Positions 14,694 through 21,390 of a stretch of DNA of 31,991 nt are shown here, one piece after another; the first letter of the stretch is position 1, and every line of letters starts with the position of its first letter. The notes under the pieces were generated by a model, which did not search any database, was not told where the DNA came from, and worked only from the letters and a program-made list of their open reading frames with translations. The position numbers and the translations under genes were made by a program. Origin of the DNA: a virus (taxonomy: Duplodnaviria > Heunggongvirae > Uroviricota > Caudoviricetes); the IMG/VR virus record IMGVR_UViG_2563366883_000019, positions 1-31,991 of that record, one strand, 5' to 3'.

Positions 14694-16667
14694 TTATGCT
14701 GCTACGGCATTCACACCAACAGTAAGACTTTCAATCAGCACAGGGTAAGTTGCCGCATTTCCGGTAATATCCGTAATTGCCAGCGCGTTGGCCTCAAAGG
14801 CTGCATTCGTCCATCTGGTCAGCGTAAACGGTTTTCCTGCTGCATTATCAAGCACCGGCGTGACGTTCAGCGAGCCACCACCCGGGAAGCGGAAAGTCAG
14901 CGTGTGCCAGTCGTGATCGAACGGACCATAACTACCAAGCCGCTGTGATGTGGTGTTTGCATGATACATCACATTGATGTTTGTTTTATCAGTCTGCAGA
15001 TAGAAGGCCGCAATATAACCCTCCTCTGATTCCGCTCCCGGCCATCCACTACCGCGCCAGTAAATACCCGCAGAATATTGATTTGCAGAAGCATTGAGAG
15101 ATACATCATCGGGGATTTTAAAGCGCAGCGTGATTTCACCGCCGTTATCGAACAGCTCCTTCCCCTTACCGGCATCAATTGCGTGCGATACTTTCCAGGT
15201 CTTTTTCTGTGCAAGACCATTTTCTGGTTTTTCAAGACGAAGGGCTTTTTTACCTGAACCACTGTCACTGACCAGCGTGTTTTTGACATCTGTCAGCGTC
15301 CAGCCCTGCGAAGCCAGAGCGGCATTTTCCGCATTCACATCATAAGCCAGCACTGACTGTATCTTTGTCGGGACAACGGCTTCAGGCTGAGTATCGCCAC
15401 TCTCCTGTGCTGGTTGCGATACGCCTCCGCCTGAAGAAACCGCGGCTTTTGTCACTTTCCCGGAAACAAAATCTGCCACTCTGCCCACATGCAGAAGAAT
15501 GGCTGTTGCCAGACGGTCGGAAATAATTCCGCGACGCGCCCATGAACCAAAGTGGGTTTTACGATCGGATGTTGTCCAGCTCTTCGCATCCGTTCGTCCA
15601 CCGGAACCATAATACCCGATAGCCGGAATATCCGGGTCTTCTGACGGTTCATTGGTCCCGACTTTCTGACCATTGTCATCCATCATAAACGGCACAAAGA
15701 AGATATTTTTACCGGCTTTGGTTTTGTATGCGCCATAGACGGCATCGTATTGCGCTGAATACGTCTCCTTCCAGTAGTACGTCGTGTCACCACAAATCCA
15801 GGGCACCAGAGAAGGAGAAGCACCAGCGCACTGACCGGATACTCCCGCCAGGTCAGAACGGTATTTTTCCACCATGGCATCAAACATGGCGGGCTGACTG
15901 GCGTACGCTCCCTGTTTTAAATCAAACTCGCCCTGCATCCAGACAACACAAAGCAGTATGTTTTTGGGGTTTGCCTTCAGCGCGGCCTGAGTGCGTGTCA
16001 GCAGGTCTTTATACAACGGCTTATCAACGCCCCATCGTTCAGATTTATCCGACGCTCCTGAACTTTCACTGAACGTTCCGTCAGCACCGGCTGTAAACGC
16101 AGAGCCACCACGACAGCACGGCACTAACAAAATACCCGCATTTTCCGGCATAAAGGGCAACAGCTTTTTGGCAATATGCAATCCCTGTCCGACACACCCA
16201 TACTGCTCTGCGCTGGCTTTCGGATGAGAAAAACGGCTCAAATCCTGCACATCATGCAGGCAGTGGTCCGCCGGAATGATGTCGTTATATGCACAGGCCG
16301 CACCACCCGGTGTCACCGTACTGCGACGCGCCAGCTGTTTAATACGCGGGTCCGGACGGTCATATGTCTCCGGCAGCGGCAGGCCTTCACCATACGCCAT
16401 GCCGTTTGACTGTCCGGCCAGCGCAATGACAAAGTAATATTCTGGTTCAACAACAACAGTCCGGGTACCATCTCCCCCCGGTGAAACTACCGGAGAGGTC
16501 ATATCCCCTTCAGCGACTATAGCCTGGATAAATTCAGCACCATAACCCGCGTTTGAGATAATCGGACTACCATAGGGTTGCCAGCCTTCCTTCAGTTTTT
16601 GCGTCAGTTTTCCTGCGAGGTCTGACGGCGATGATGCCCTGACCACGTCATAGTGTTTAAATGCCAT
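14694..16667 (-). CDS. nanS-p: Prophage-encoded sialate O-acetylesterase NanS-p (SGNH/SASA esterase domain plus C-terminal lectin-like region, about 657 aa)
   Basis: ALAGQSNGMAYGEG esterase motif of the NanS/YjhS family; large size and position downstream of the Q/late leader match the nanS-p gene found downstream of stx in EHEC phages. Preferred ATG at 16667 has GGGAGG 4 nt upstream; the ORF track start at 16697 is TTG. Confidence 0.75.
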   Translation of the reverse strand: MAFKHYDVVRASSPSDLAGKLTQKLKEGWQPYGSPIISNAGYGAEFIQAIVAEGDMTSPVVSPGGDGTRTVVVEPEYYFVIALAGQSNGMAYGEGLPLPETYDRPDPRIKQLARRSTVTPGGAACAYNDIIPADHCLHDVQDLSRFSHPKASAEQYGCVGQGLHIAKKLLPFMPENAGILLVPCCRGGSAFTAGADGTFSESSGASDKSERWGVDKPLYKDLLTRTQAALKANPKNILLCVVWMQGEFDLKQGAYASQPAMFDAMVEKYRSDLAGVSGQCAGASPSLVPWICGDTTYYWKETYSAQYDAVYGAYKTKAGKNIFFVPFMMDDNGQKVGTNEPSEDPDIPAIGYYGSGGRTDAKSWTTSDRKTHFGSWARRGIISDRLATAILLHVGRVADFVSGKVTKAAVSSGGGVSQPAQESGDTQPEAVVPTKIQSVLAYDVNAENAALASQGWTLTDVKNTLVSDSGSGKKALRLEKPENGLAQKKTWKVSHAIDAGKGKELFDNGGEITLRFKIPDDVSLNASANQYSAGIYWRGSGWPGAESEEGYIAAFYLQTDKTNINVMYHANTTSQRLGSYGPFDHDWHTLTFRFPGGGSLNVTPVLDNAAGKPFTLTRWTNAAFEANALAITDITGNAATYPVLIESLTVGVNAVAA

Positions 16668-16868
16668 TATTCCTCCCGGCAGGGATAGTGTATGCAATCA
16701 AGATAAGGTGCGGGCTGACGTCAGTCATGGACAAGGGTTCAGAAACAGGAGGATGACTACAGCCCGCAATACGAAAAAGACCATACAGTTGCGCAGAGTG
16801 ATTACTGTCGGGTATTATTCGCCAGCTGAAAATTGATCACTTCACGTTTTGTTGTTTATTCCTTGCCA

Positions 16869-16897: not shown

Positions 16898-16903
16898 ATC
16901 CAA

Positions 16904-16929
16904 CAAGAAAGCCCCTCCGGAGAGGGGCT
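16904..16929 (-). terminator. Minus-strand hairpin terminator ending repeat copy A
   Basis: GCCCCTC-TCCG-GAGGGGC on the minus strand followed by TTTCTTGTT. Confidence 0.5.
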
Positions 16930-17136
16930 GGAGAGTAGCGCTATGTACCGTTCATGCATGGTGCAGGGTGCCTCCCGGTGAGTTCAGTATCAGCACCTGA
17001 ACCCGCACCAGAAAGGATAAGGGGTGTGACCAAACACCTGTCGCTGATATGCCCCTCCGCACAGGGGGATTCACCATGCCATATTTTTTTAACAAACTTC
17101 CCGCTGGCCAGACAATAATCGCCAGCCTGAATTGTG
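16904..17136 (-). repeat. Copy A of a diverged element of about 230 bp (candidate structured RNA) in the late leader
   Basis: Shares conserved 5' and 3' blocks with copy B; the central block differs; internal helices are retained by compensatory changes. Confidence 0.6.
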
Positions 17137-17387
17137 AGTAACGTGGCATTTTACGGGAAAACTGTTTTCTGCAGTAAAAAGGCCCGCCGGAGCGAGCCTG
17201 GAAGGATAGCGGTCATGTGATGCCGGTTTCCCGGTAACTCAGCATCGGTATCTGAGTCAACGTTTTCTCTACTGGGTCATTTCCGATACGTTCCGCCTTC
17301 CGGCAGACTTTCATCACGTCAGAAAATATAGCACCCTGAGTAACAGGACAGTACTCAGAATTCAGGAAACTGTGACACATCCTGCAC

Positions 17388-17412
17388 AGAAAAGCCCCTC
17401 CGGAGAGGGGCT
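17388..17412 (-). terminator. Minus-strand hairpin terminator ending repeat copy B
   Basis: Identical GCCCCTC/GAGGGGC hairpin followed by TTTTCTG on the minus strand. Confidence 0.5.
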
Positions 17413-17606
17413 GAAGTATAGCCTAATTTCTGTCTGTCGCATGGTGCCAGGTGCCTCCCGGTAAATTCAGCCTGGCTACTGAATTTGCATGTTCGCTGGA
17501 TCATACACTTTGCCAGATGCCCCGCCGCTGAGGGGGATTCACCACGCGATGCAATTTTTAACAAATTCTCCGGCAGCCAGACAATCATCAAGCTGTGGAA
17601 TTGTGA
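17388..17606 (-). repeat. Copy B of the same element
   Basis: Same conserved blocks as copy A; the overlapping ORFs in the two copies are not conserved at protein level. Confidence 0.6.
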
Positions 17607-17926
17607 GGTATTTAAAAATTTCGCAGCCTCTTGCCACCCGCTTTTCACAAAAATCGTATGTAGAAGGCCGCAGCGTAACTATCACTGATGAATTCAGGAC
17701 CCCCAGAGGCTACGGCTCAGTTTGGATTGTGGCGGCCGGAATCGAACCAGCTCCCAGCGGTGCGCTGCCGATTACAATACGCGCGGCGATCCGCTACATG
17801 ACTAGTATTTTCACAGTCGCCTGTCTGCTAGCTCGCCATTGAGCTTCACCACAACGATAAGAGCACTGCGCACACCTTTCACCAATTCCACGAGGTCTGC
17901 GGGTTCAATGCTCTTACCTGTTGTGC

Positions 17927-17958
17927 AAACAAAAAGCCCCGACATTTCTGCCGAGGCC
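17927..17958 (-). terminator. Candidate tR'-like terminator downstream of the putative late promoter
   Basis: Minus-strand hairpin GCCTCGGCA-GAAA-TGTCGGGGC (two G:U pairs) followed by TTTTTGTTTG. Confidence 0.45.
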
Positions 17959-18064
17959 TTTACCTAATCTAGCCAGTATGCCGATCCTAAATATTATCGA
18001 CGACCGAGGTAAATCAGGATTTCTCTTTCGCTTCTCAGTGCGCTTTTGCTCCGAGCATACACAA

Positions 18065-18093
18065 AACATACTACTTTCATTTCTCGAAAGCAA
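18065..18093 (-). promoter_or_regulatory. Candidate late promoter (pR'-like) just downstream of the Q-locus genes
   Basis: Minus-strand TTGCTT, 17-nt spacer, TATGTT, located about 25 nt after the stop of the 204-aa ORF and about 100 nt upstream of a terminator hairpin. Confidence 0.3.
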
Positions 18094-18117
18094 CGCATTT
18101 ACAAAAAATATTTTGCA

Positions 18118-18732
18118 TCATCCAGCAATCACTAGAAGTTCTTTCTCCAATTCTCGCTTCATTGCATAAAACATTTCTGAATCAAGGACCCTCTCGCACC
18201 ACACGACCCGCCTCCGGCAATACTGAATATCAACTCCTGTTATCTGAGAAATCATCCTGGCGATATCTTGCGTGCTGTCGCGATTGCAATATCGCCTAAT
18301 AGCTACATCACGGACAGGGCTTTCACGATGAAAGGTCTCAACCATCACACGTTCAACGAAAGCAGCATCATCGGATTCTTTGGCGAGAGCAATGATATTA
18401 CCTGCCGATGACTGAGGGATGACCAGTTCTCGGGCTTTCTGATGGAGTTCATCTCCACGTAGTCCGTCTTCTTCATACAGACGCATGACAACAGACTCAA
18501 TCTGCTTAGCTTTGTCATCGCTCCACTGACTGCGAATCATCAGTCGCCCAATAACGTTAATTGCACCACAAGGAGAATCATCACCAGCGTTAACATTTCC
18601 CCATACCTGTAGCATGTAGTGAACCCATGCTTTCTGACGAGAGTTAATGATTTTCTTCGGATGCCTCCATATGCGGCGGAAATGAGCATCATTAATAAAG
18701 TTAACCATGCCGAATACTGGGGTTAGCCGCAT
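18118..18732 (-). CDS. Putative late antiterminator Q-like protein (about 204 aa)
   Basis: Position after ninH and immediately upstream of a promoter-like element plus terminator; ATG overlaps the stop of the upstream 80-aa ORF (TGATG). Assignment is positional; no motif recognised confidently. Confidence 0.4.
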   Translation of the reverse strand: MRLTPVFGMVNFINDAHFRRIWRHPKKIINSRQKAWVHYMLQVWGNVNAGDDSPCGAINVIGRLMIRSQWSDDKAKQIESVVMRLYEEDGLRGDELHQKARELVIPQSSAGNIIALAKESDDAAFVERVMVETFHRESPVRDVAIRRYCNRDSTQDIARMISQITGVDIQYCRRRVVWCERVLDSEMFYAMKRELEKELLVIAG

Positions 18733-18974
18733 CACAGCCCCCATCCTTTACAATGACACCACACTTCAAACATTCGTTTCACAACTTCACGGCAGTAGAA
18801 ACCGTCAGCATCACGTGTCAGGTCATAGCGATCTCCGTGCTTCAGTCTCATATAGCATTCGAATAATCTGTTCATATACTCTTCGCCATGAACTCCGCTA
18901 TTACGCTGCTCATGCGCTTTTCCAGACGACCTGAATAAAGCCATGCGTTCAGGCACCTGCTGAATATCACGCAT
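18732..18974 (-). CDS. Hypothetical protein at the Q locus (80 aa from internal ATG), Cys/His-containing
   Basis: Begins MRDIQQVPER and starts 8 nt before the ninH stop; the ORF track frame extends to 19079, overlapping ninH. Translationally coupled to the 204-aa ORF. Confidence 0.4.
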   Translation of the reverse strand: MRDIQQVPERMALFRSSGKAHEQRNSGVHGEEYMNRLFECYMRLKHGDRYDLTRDADGFYCREVVKRMFEVWCHCKGWGL

Positions 18975-20489: not shown

Positions 20490-21158
20490 TCAGAATTCAA
20501 ATTGTCTTGCCCGCAGACTTTTCAGCATTGGCATGGCCCGCTGGATAACGGAACTTGACATGTCGAGACGTGTTACCTCCCTTAGTAGCGCGTCTCTGTT
20601 CTTCGTCACCATGTAGATGGTCTCAAACGCAATGTCATACAGCTTGTTCGTGTATGAGGAGTTCAGCTCTTTCATAATGGGATACAGGTGTTTGCTGAGG
20701 TCCTGGGCTTTTTCCATCCAGAGCTGCATGTAGCAAAGGAGGATGATTTCTTCGGCTGTGAATTGTGGCTGAATCTGCGGCTGCTGTTCGGTTGGTGCTG
20801 TTTTTCCCTGGCTGAAATAGCAGTCTTCCAGTTTTTCGAACACTTCCCACGCCCGATCGGTTTCGAGCATTTTTGCATGACGGGCTGCGCCGCGTTCTGT
20901 CCAGAGGATGAGGGAGCGAACGTTACGGGCAATTTTCACAGAAGGTCTTAAAGACATGCTGTGCTTAAATTCGCGCAACTTCTCATTCTCAAGTAAAAAG
21001 TAGTGCTTACCGATAACAAATCGTCCAGAATTCCGATTGAAATTTTTTCGGATGTAATCTGGTTCTGTGCCATATAAGCTGGCAAGAAGCTCTGTAGTCA
21101 CCACAGGTATATTACTAAATGAAATTATGGAGAGGGACTCCACGGAGATGGTTTTCAT
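20490..21158 (-). CDS. ORF6N / KilA-N-like DNA-binding protein (putative antirepressor-type regulator, 222 aa)
   Basis: N-terminal region (TTELLASLYGTEPDYIRKNFNRNSGRFVIGKHYFL...RSLILWTERGAARHAKMLETDRAWEVFEKLEDCYF) resembles ORF6N/Ant N-terminal domains; followed by a hairpin with a T-run. Confidence 0.65.
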   Translation of the reverse strand: MKTISVESLSIISFSNIPVVTTELLASLYGTEPDYIRKNFNRNSGRFVIGKHYFLLENEKLREFKHSMSLRPSVKIARNVRSLILWTERGAARHAKMLETDRAWEVFEKLEDCYFSQGKTAPTEQQPQIQPQFTAEEIILLCYMQLWMEKAQDLSKHLYPIMKELNSSYTNKLYDIAFETIYMVTKNRDALLREVTRLDMSSSVIQRAMPMLKSLRARQFEF

Positions 21159-21390
21159 GCTTTGTGTCCTACTTGATATTTTGATTTACCCCTTTTGAGA
21201 GGGTGACCGGGCGCTCAAAACCGCAAGTAGTCGGCGGGCATATTCCCATTGCTGGTATTGTATTAGCCGCACGCCCGGTCATAAACCAAGAAGACTGGAC
21301 ACAAAAAAACCGCATGTCTGTCGGGCGCGGTAACCGCTACTTGCTAAGGTGTTTTGAGCACCTGACGCAGAGTATCCGACAGAATGTGTG

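Follow-up and report, generated by a model that had tools for sequence, protein, structure and literature searches.

A tRNA-shaped RNA gene with an additional arm in the late-operon leader of a prophage, and its relatives in unrelated phages

The locus and the extent of the element

The stretch of DNA analysed here (31,991 nucleotides, called the window throughout) carries a Q-like antiterminator gene, a terminator, a tRNA-like element and an esterase gene in this order. The Q-like gene (Table 1) places the tRNA-like element in the late-operon leader, and the terminator hairpin gave terminator-type partial matches in the Rfam scan. In phage 933W the corresponding order is Q, pR', terminators, three tRNAs, stx and esterase, and the slot of the element, after Q, pR' and tR', is equivalent to that of ileZ-argN-argO, as the initial annotation had proposed for this location. 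On the 3' side of the element two STnc100 copies are followed by the sialate-esterase ORF. An identity with the Pas or STnc100 sRNAs was discarded, as the STnc100 copies lie off the element; Pas was compared by its described loci.

The initial annotation had noticed a T-stem and loop and had read it as the remnant of a tRNA gene with neither a pairable acceptor stem nor a 3' CCA. The arm itself (GCTGG-TTCGATT-CCGGC on the minus strand, 17751-17735) is present as described, and its relation to tRNA is borne out by the Rfam model RF00005, positions 1-71 of which align end to end to 17727-17853 on the minus strand with 27.5 bits in a permissive scan of 17550-18150 (E = 0.0014 for the 601-nt scan; gathering score 29), leaving about 57 extra nucleotides in the anticodon region. 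However, an acceptor stem can be paired: 17847-17853 and 17728-17734 form a perfect 7-bp helix, which had been missed because the interval considered initially, 17712-17800, left out the 5' half of the element. As to the CCA, none stands directly after the discriminator, but one follows a single base further on (A-U-CCA).

ARAGORN at default settings found neither a tRNA nor a tmRNA in the whole window, in line with the initial view that no ordinary functional tRNA lies here. An intact tRNA call, which would have spoken against a remnant, was encountered in part: among the matches listed, the homologous 127 nt with the same ends are annotated as tRNA-Arg by PGAP in one E. coli genome of RefSeq, but most genomes leave the element unannotated. 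The element matched no other Rfam family at E up to 10. By comparison, the family covariance model R1 scores the window copy with 129.6 bits (E = 1e-27) over 17726-17855. Evidently, the T arm noticed initially makes up the last third, on the 3' side, of a tRNA-shaped RNA gene that is complete with 127 bases and has an extra arm. The latter accounts for 57 nt and separates the D arm from the anticodon-like arm.

Table 1 Features of the window copy and its surroundings (positions in the window)
Feature	Position	Strand	Basis or remark
Q-like antiterminator gene	18118-18744	-	phrog_753, E = 3.5e-68
tR'-like intrinsic terminator hairpin and U tract	17927-17962	-	directly upstream of the 5' module
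Conserved 5' module, GCACAACAGGUAAGAGCAUU (17907-17926) with UGCUCUUAUC (17856-17865)	17856-17926	-	predicted helix
Complete tRNA-like RNA, acceptor position 1 to discriminator, 127 nt	17727-17853	-	RF00005, R1, PGAP homologue
8th and 9th acceptor pairs, added by U17854 and G17855	17854, 17855	-	family alignment
Acceptor stem, 5' strand UGUGGUG	17847-17853	-	pairs with 17728-17734; helix covaries
A8 and A9	17845-17846	-	precede the D arm
D arm GCUC-AAUGGC-GAGC	17831-17844	-	RF00005 alignment; stem almost invariant in the family
Inserted extra arm	17774-17828	-	covarying helices
Extra-arm basal helix, GCAG with UUGU	17825-17828 with 17774-17777	-	covaries
Extra-arm internal loop, ACA / GCGCGUA	17778-17784 (GCGCGUA)	-	
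Extra-arm inner hairpin	17785-17821	-	8 of 9 stem pairs change on both sides in the family
Apical loop, 20 nt	17794-17813	-	
Self-complementary hexamer ACUAGU in the apical loop	17801-17806	-	A2 columns 52-57
Anticodon-like arm AUCGG-CAGCGCA-CCGCU, 5 bp/7 nt	17756-17772	-	stem covaries in the family
T arm GCUGG-UUCGAUU-CCGGC	17735-17751	-	3 of 5 pairs change on both sides in the family
Acceptor stem, 3' strand CGCCACA	17728-17734	-	followed by A17727, U17726 and CCA (17723-17725)
STnc100 copy	17384-17577		
STnc100 copy	16899-17108		

Distribution, structure and genomic settings of the family

BLAST and pattern scans, the latter covering metagenomes, viral contigs and species-representative genomes, yielded 186 copies of the element (69 distinct sequences) from lambdoid, P22-like, Skate-like and Pantoea phages. 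As the collection patterns fixed either the D arm or the GCGCGUA...AUCGG block, the conservation of these parts is inflated and partly a sampling effect. In BLAST against phage genomes the identity was about 91% for the Skatevirus phages of Salmonella (Skate, seszw, Akira and others) and 92% for lambdoid phages including HK75; Pantoea phage PdC23, Salmonella phage ST1UNAM and the P22-like BIS08P22 were more distant (71-76%). In phages otherwise unrelated to the window the match is limited to query positions 5-134, so that it begins and ends almost exactly with the acceptor stem. The element was found in 163 of 5426 complete E. coli genomes (about 3%), on the chromosome every time, and in 92-107 phage records; Klebsiella, Enterobacter and Superficieibacter are among its further genomic hosts, and its genomic settings comprise at least four that are unrelated to each other. 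Four copies, representing three distinct sequences, are short forms of 110 nt. Apart from the PGAP call, the element carries no annotation or is covered by hypothetical proteins and, in two phage records, by a "polyubiquitin-A". Its retention in the genome-reduced seszw phages is uninformative, the corresponding study describing the deletion of annotated genes, with no mention of intergenic or non-coding DNA.

A structure of six helices was tested on the alignment A2 of the 69 sequences, comprising the terminal 7 bp (with an 8th and a 9th pair), the D stem, a basal helix of 3-4 bp and an inner hairpin of 6-9 bp in the insert, a 5-bp arm with a 7-nt loop at the anticodon position and the T stem. 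Standard pairs occupy 92.9% of the cells, compared with 30-47% after sliding the 3' partners by 1-3 columns, changes on both sides occur in 23 of the 36 pairs, and none of 500 column shuffles reached the observed values. Furthermore, RNAalifold, which was not given the tested structure, yielded the same six helices. The acceptor stem varies between UGUGGUG/CACCACA, UGAGGUG/CACCUCA and UGUGACG/CGUCACA, and its 8th pair is UA in 34, GC in 19 and AU in 9 sequences. Likewise, the basal helix of the insert occurs as GCAG/CUGC, GGG/CCC, GUGU/ACAC, GAG/CUC and GUG/CAC, the anticodon-like stem as AUCGG/CCGAU, ACCGG/CCGGU, AUUGG/CCAAU, AUCAG/CUGAU and AUAGG/CCUAU, and the T stem has eight or more variants. 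Almost no variation, and hence no covariation evidence, comes from the D stem (GCUC/GAGC), the anticodon-like loop or the GCGCGUA junction; the sole change in the D stem is one-sided, from C-G to U-G at one pair in 7 sequences. The GCGC of the junction and the GCGC of the loop may form a pseudoknot, but both blocks are invariant and the loop variants CAUCGCA carry no compensating change. The minimum free energy fold of the single window sequence was not better than that of shuffles (z = -1.4), and consequently the case rests on the comparative data and not on folding energy. A covariance model built from A2 scores family members with 110-152 bits and true tRNAs with 13-28 bits. We are highly confident that this represents a real, structured and selected RNA family.

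The window copy carries the blocks GAAGCUCAAYGGCGAGCUAG, GCGCGUA and NAKCGCA and the six ordered helices of the R1 family except for C17757. No other base separates it from phage PhiR5_2, E. coli G1/2 and 13 viral or metagenome contigs: C stands for A at 17757 (minus strand), and a U-A pair of the anticodon-like stem, kept in 68 of the 69 distinct sequences, becomes U-C. The score of 129.6 bits is the lowest among the long forms. The copy may thus be slightly impaired or under relaxed selection on the prophage, or 17757 may contain a sequencing error.

At the tip of the extra arm, columns 52-57 of A2 hold a self-complementary hexamer in all 66 distinct long forms, in the types ACUAGU, UCUAGA, UCGCGA, GCUAGC, ACCGGU, UCCGGA and UCUGGA. 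Its outer pair is A-U in 33, U-A in 29 and G-C in 4 sequences and its centre pair U-A in 50, G-C in 12, C-G in 2 and U-G in 2, and the hexamer cells are paired to 100%, compared with 22-41% in slid controls keeping at least two pairs. Because adjacent bases cannot pair within one strand, this pattern speaks for a symmetric duplex of two molecules. UCUGGA (28 copies) is symmetric solely via G-U pairs, i.e. as RNA, which favours RNA over DNA as the selected form. By its length alone the palindrome does not differ significantly from shuffled loops (mean 6.3 nt versus 5.5 nt), so that only the position-specific covariation carries weight, and with the palindrome missing in the short forms dimerisation cannot be universal. 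For the long forms the covariation points to a putative loop-loop dimerisation.

The genomic settings fall largely into two classes. About 130 copies including that of the window belong to class 1, with a terminal helix of 9 bp. In their 5' module GCACAACAGGUAAGAGCAUU pairs with AGUGCUCUU(U/A)YC around a variable insert of 43-60 nt; the 12-pair helix was predicted in 8 unrelated contexts, both strands being conserved in sequence. The conserved leader UGCUCUU(U/A) resembles the rrn or lambda boxA, but it forms the 3' side of a conserved helix of 10-12 bp whose other side is GGUAAGAGCA, and it is missing from the N-leader class; a boxA reading was therefore rejected. Copies of class 1 in E. coli lambdoid prophages come after tR', the late-operon terminator, and the homologous block of phage HK75 begins where the annotated Tr' terminator ends. 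An Enterobacter prophage has the element flanked by two terminators, with the holin and endolysin genes further downstream. Its place in Skatevirus and relatives is antisense, with the tail-completion gene on one side and the major-tail gene on the other; here a sigma70-like promoter (TTGACA-17-TAGATT) on the strand of the element precedes it by 165 nt, and a terminator but no ORF follows it. The short forms end in a U/C-GAAGA-G hairpin reminiscent of lambda's boxB; since they occur among the tail genes of Skate-like phages, with no N gene close by, a reading as N-binding site was rejected.

In class 2 (about 40 copies) a boxB-type hairpin precedes the element, and the ribosome-binding site of an N-like gene follows it. 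Leader and trailer form 7-15 further base pairs, and the Shine-Dalgarno sequence of the N-like gene follows 14-21 nt downstream of the element (38 nt in one subgroup). At three of these loci (L008, L074 and L220) the flanks are phage lambda's own N-leader flanks: the layout in lambda is ...GCCCUGAAGAAGGGCAGCAUUCAAAGCAGAAGGCUUUGGGGUGUGUG-[92 nt]-CACACACCACCAAAGCUAACUGACAGGAGAAUCCAGAUG, and the element replaces the 92 nt. We assume that the RNase III cuts in lambda fall in this N-leader stem. There is no support for reading the lambda interior as a decayed or inverted element, as its score is just 5.8 bits in antisense and 1.6 bits in sense orientation. According to a passage in PMC5371410, which cites Steege et al. 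1987, the lambda N leader is a target of RNase III.

True tRNA genes accompany the element at several loci, on the same strand in each case. At L146 a tRNA-Arg(UCU) begins 5 nt past the element and is followed by a tRNA(CAU), a tRNA-Thr lies upstream at L137, and in three Skate-like contigs a tRNA(CAU) is found about 100 nt downstream. HNH or homing endonuclease genes are close to the element in some loci. In many subfamilies a CCA is present 1-3 nt past the acceptor stem, and its register is not constant.

Decoding features and the possible role of the RNA

The canonical traits of a tRNA present in the element comprise the 7-bp acceptor stem, the 5-bp T stem, a T loop of the form UUCRANY and G18-G19 in the D loop. 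Within the family the T loop (UUCGAYU) and the D-loop GG are invariant, and acceptor and T stems covary. Once the 57-nt insert was deleted in silico, default ARAGORN called a tRNA-Arg(gcg), so that the outer frame represents a full cloverleaf; as a canonical tRNA the complete element fails detection (0 genes by ARAGORN, and 27.5 bits with RF00005 against the gathering score of 29). U8, A21, U33 and purine 37 are all absent from the 69 distinct sequences. Little or no variation is seen in A8, A9 and the D loop AAYGGC, and the near-invariant anticodon-like loop N-A-(G/U)-C-G-C-A (C-A-G-C-G-C-A in the window copy) places A at 33 and C at 37. Since U8, A21, U33 and purine 37 are missing, we consider it quite probable that this RNA does not decode.

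The anticodon-like arm resembles the arm of E. coli tRNA-Arg(ACG), which we take to be CUCGG-CUACGAA-CCGAG, and this likeness suggests that the element derives from a tRNA-Arg. An insertion by a tRNA intron, either of group I or of the archaeal bulge-helix-bulge type, was considered and rejected: the insert has 40-57 nt and lies between positions 26 and 27, compared with a group I core of 200 nt or more in or beside the anticodon loop, it matches no Rfam intron family, and its removal leaves a product still without U33 and R37.

That the element is a genuine, chargeable tRNA in an expanded form, be it an Arg(GCG) with an extra arm or a class-II-like molecule, which supplements translation like ileZ/argN/argO, appears improbable to us. 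The PGAP annotation as tRNA-Arg and the Arg(gcg) call after insert removal agree with such a role, as do the location in tRNA clusters and in the tRNA locus of Stx phages, the CCA 1-3 nt beyond the acceptor stem in many subfamilies and the resemblance to the tRNA-Arg(ACG) arm. Nevertheless, no reading yields a loop with U33 and purine 37, not even the class-II reading, in which AUCGG-CAGCGCA-CCGAU forms the variable arm and the insert a long anticodon arm; the tip of this long arm is a 20-nt loop in the long forms, i.e. in most members, and U/C-GAAGA-G in the short forms. U8, A21 and the standard Levitt pair are missing family-wide, and C20 takes the place of A20, the base that ArgRS needs according to the established identity rule. 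Moreover, the register of the CCA varies, and ARAGORN in its relaxed and intron modes gives no consistent anticodon, its calls changing from Thr (window) to Ala (E. coli type) and Arg (L008). An RF00005 score just under the gathering score, the null result of ARAGORN and one stem-breaking change in the window copy are likewise what a degraded tRNA pseudogene or a tRNA-derived recombination scar (an attP-like fragment) would produce, as had been suggested initially. We regard this origin as very improbable: acceptor stem, D arm and T arm are all whole, the helices including the inserted arm show compensatory changes, and the same unit of 110-127 nt recurs in unrelated phages with its similarity stopping almost exactly at the acceptor-stem ends. 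The comparison with ileZ, argN and argO proposed in the initial annotation gave just 15-24 bits with the family model, compared with 110-152 bits for family members, so that decay from these genes was rejected as well.

An unlikely alternative is a cis-acting module for processing or translation control, in which the tRNA fold and the flanking stems would recruit RNase P or RNase III to the leader, the cut would separate nutL or tR' from the first gene and the released RNA would be without function. Such a module would explain why lambdoid copies always lie in a leader, either from a boxB-like hairpin to the N ribosome-binding site or from tR' to the lysis genes, and that the element replaces the interior of lambda's N-leader hairpin in lambda relatives. 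But a processing signal does not need invariant loops, a covarying fifth arm and a covarying palindrome, lambda copes with an unrelated interior (1.6 bits on the sense strand), and the Skatevirus copy is a separate unit antisense to the tail genes without any downstream ORF. A DNA-level element, whose palindrome and GC-rich blocks would be protein-binding or recombination sites with incidental helices, has hardly any probability in our estimation. It would account for hexamers that are classic 6-bp DNA palindromes (ACTAGT, TCTAGA, TCGCGA) and for the HNH or homing endonuclease genes close by in some loci; against this, the helices tolerate G-U pairs, UCUGGA is symmetric only as RNA, the orientation always follows local transcription or the element's own promoter, and T loop and D loop bear the signatures of tRNA tertiary structure.

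We give about an even chance to the reading that 17727-17853 (minus strand) is a nearly intact copy of an apparently undescribed, tRNA-derived phage RNA family, whose product is excised and acts as a stable mimic in trans. Judging from its position, the RNA would be transcribed in this prophage within the Q-dependent late transcript just past tR', and in general it would be made only in lytic growth, the promoter being pL (early), pR' (late) or one of its own. Host enzymes would excise it, potentially RNase P together with 3' trimming in the present case and RNase III at loci whose flanks fold into a long stem, and it would accumulate as a stable RNA; in view of the context, we hold an excised and stable RNA to be probable. 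Two copies may then pair via the hexamer at the extra-arm tip, as suggested by its covariation. In a more speculative step, the RNA would act in trans as a tRNA mimic engaging a host tRNA-binding factor during lytic growth, one possibility being a decoy for an enzyme or a defence nuclease directed against tRNA, possibly tRNA-Arg. Such a decoy is the most appealing idea on the function, and the role as trans-acting mimic or decoy is put forward tentatively.

The elbow and the acceptor are kept while the anticodon loop is disabled, and D stem and loops are invariant, which together suggests recognition by a tRNA-handling protein. Furthermore, an RNA acting in trans is favoured over a cis signal because every setting would allow host enzymes to excise it and one lacks a downstream gene. 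Counted against it were the lambdoid copies, whose constant location in an operon leader also fits a purely cis role, and the window copy with its stem-breaking substitution and the lowest score of the long forms.

A more elaborate version, which we find doubtful, holds that a scaffold derived from tRNA-Arg, with disabled anticodon loop and dimerising fifth arm, has settled at sites of guaranteed excision and would occupy or disarm a tRNA-recognising host factor in trans during lytic growth. The sites in question would be the tip of the RNase III hairpin in the N leader, tRNA clusters or a position behind the element's own promoter, and the homodimers would be sequence-specific with several specificity types. 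Host factors of this kind might be a modifying toxin or a defence nuclease that targets tRNA. PMC10264068 documents tRNAs encoded by phages that evade cleavage by anticodon nucleases.

Comparison with known systems

Rfam 15 holds no family for the element, and limited text searches of the literature found no description of it, a prior description being possible. Lambdoid and P22-like phages are among the best-studied genomes, yet the element has been left unannotated or annotated as bogus proteins in them; ORF calls across it should stop. With canonical tRNA (RF00005) it has in common the 7-bp acceptor, the D arm with GG, the 5-bp T stem with the UUCGAYU loop and a 5-bp/7-nt arm at the anticodon position, but it has five arms and 110-127 nt in place of four arms and about 73-93 nt, and it lacks U8, A21, U33 and purine 37.

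The N-leader hairpin of lambda is related by its frame: its base sequences ...GGCUUUGGGG... and ...CCACCAAAGCUAACUGACAGGAG-AUG also flank the element in lambda relatives, whereas lambda's 92-nt interior is unrelated to it. The window copy differs in lying in a late leader, not in an N leader, and in having no long stem. The element at the stem tip suggests that lambda's hairpin can be a launch pad for cargo RNAs.

tRNA mimicry for a non-decoding job is known from tmRNA. A tmRNA identity was rejected, with none found by ARAGORN, no tag reading frame and a length of 127 nt that is too short. P4 CI and P1/P7 C4 are small phage RNAs cut from operon leaders by tRNA-processing enzymes. The Rfam C4 model gave no match to the element at E up to 10, and C4 and CI RNAs have no D-loop/T-loop elbow, unlike the element. 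YrlA is a non-decoding tRNA mimic with D-loop/T-loop elbow contacts, and the conservation of its D- and T-stem sequences was taken to suggest a protein partner (bioRxiv 10.1101/312249). However, YrlA is circularly permuted, with a loop-closed acceptor stem, 5' and 3' ends that form a Ro-binding stem and a linkage to rsr, whereas the element ends at its acceptor stem and has the normal order of tRNA arms. An identity with YrlA or Y RNAs was thus rejected on topology and for want of an Rfam YrlA match at E up to 10; moreover, we know of no Rsr in E. coli hosts.

Conceptually, the element comes closest to the stable species 1 and 2 RNAs of phage T4 (rnaC and rnaD) of 139 and 119 nt, which belong to the T4 tRNA cluster and adjoin tRNA-Arg. 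The last 95 nt of rnaC are tRNA-like, with an acceptor-like stem and a T arm; rnaC and rnaD are unrelated to the element in sequence, with 13 bits in the family model like any tRNA, and rnaC has no comparable fifth arm or palindrome. To our knowledge, the function of the T4 RNAs is still unknown. The covarying kissing-loop hexamer of the present element makes dimerisation directly testable. If the element is a stable tRNA mimic, it would be a tractable relative of the T4 RNAs, and it would add a representative from bacterial viruses to the non-decoding mimics tmRNA, YrlA and the tRNA-like structures of plant viruses.

Conserved flanks and neighboring small RNAs

Directly 5′ of the tRNA-like element lies a paired leader segment, the 5′ module (window 17856-17926, minus strand), in which the 20-mer GCACAACAGGUAAGAGCAUU and the leader AGUGCUCUU(U/A)YC, both conserved, form a helix around a variable insert of 43-60 nt; the leader immediately adjoins the element on its 5′ side. 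The module is also present in L001, L003, L004, L217, L022 and L030, and the sequence of its helix is kept on both strands among unrelated phages. In L022 the insert contains a T-arm-like hairpin (CAGAG-UUCGAUU-CUCUG). On the 3′ side, a block of approximately 105 nt (window 17622-17726, minus strand) is ~90% conserved across lambdoid phages of E. coli, HK75 and PDP110 among them, and this conservation does not extend to the remaining carriers; the block includes a weak terminator-like hairpin (see table).

The prophage sRNA STnc100, for which a 2026 preprint describes kinship to PasD, is present as a tandem pair between the element and a sialate-esterase ORF. A further match, to sRNA-Xcc1, adjoins an ORF6N/P22_AR antirepressor-like ORF (window 20490-21158, minus strand).

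Features associated with the element and its comparison loci
Feature	Location	Strand	Remark
Terminator-like hairpin	window 17623-17637	-	weak
STnc100, copy one	window 17384-17577	-	138.7 bits
STnc100, copy two	window 16899-17108	-	129.9 bits
Sialate-esterase ORF	window 14694-16697	-	
sRNA-Xcc1 (RF02221)	window 21197-21280	-	full-length, 79.6 bits (gathering score 53)
HNH/AP2/homing endonuclease gene	L130 435-920		near element
HNH/AP2/homing endonuclease gene	L006 2090-2590		near element
HNH/AP2/homing endonuclease gene	L004 from 2953 on		near element
T4 rnaC acceptor stem	in L238 1909-2003	-	ACGGAAC/GUUUCGU
T4 rnaC T arm	in L238 1909-2003	-	CCGGG-UUCGAAU-CCCGG

Annotation and spread between genomes

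In the phage records ON470589, ON470594, PV340546 and MH321493 protein-coding genes are annotated over the RNA element, their products being "polyubiquitin-A" and hypothetical proteins. In view of indels of 1-17 nt and RNA-type covariation, these ORFs are likely false.

In several unrelated phages, HNH, AP2 or homing endonuclease genes lie no more than 1-2 kb from the element, and segB is likewise placed within the T4 tRNA cluster; such genes may bear on the movement of the element among genomes. In L128, a metagenome-assembled genome labelled Cellvibrionaceae, the element and its flanks show no difference from the type seen in E. coli lambdoid phages, and the contig is probably a contaminant or mis-binned.

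Comparison with phages T4 and lambda

The 3′ 95 nt of T4 rnaC (species 1 RNA) adopt a tRNA-like fold, and in T4 tRNA-Arg is directly followed by rnaD and rnaC. In lambda (L239, 35390-35500 region) the basal stem of the N-leader hairpin has the same sequence as the flanks of the element in the lambda relatives L008, L074 and L220; where these carry the element, lambda has an unrelated 92-nt interior, whose antisense strand scores only 5.8 bits with the family model.
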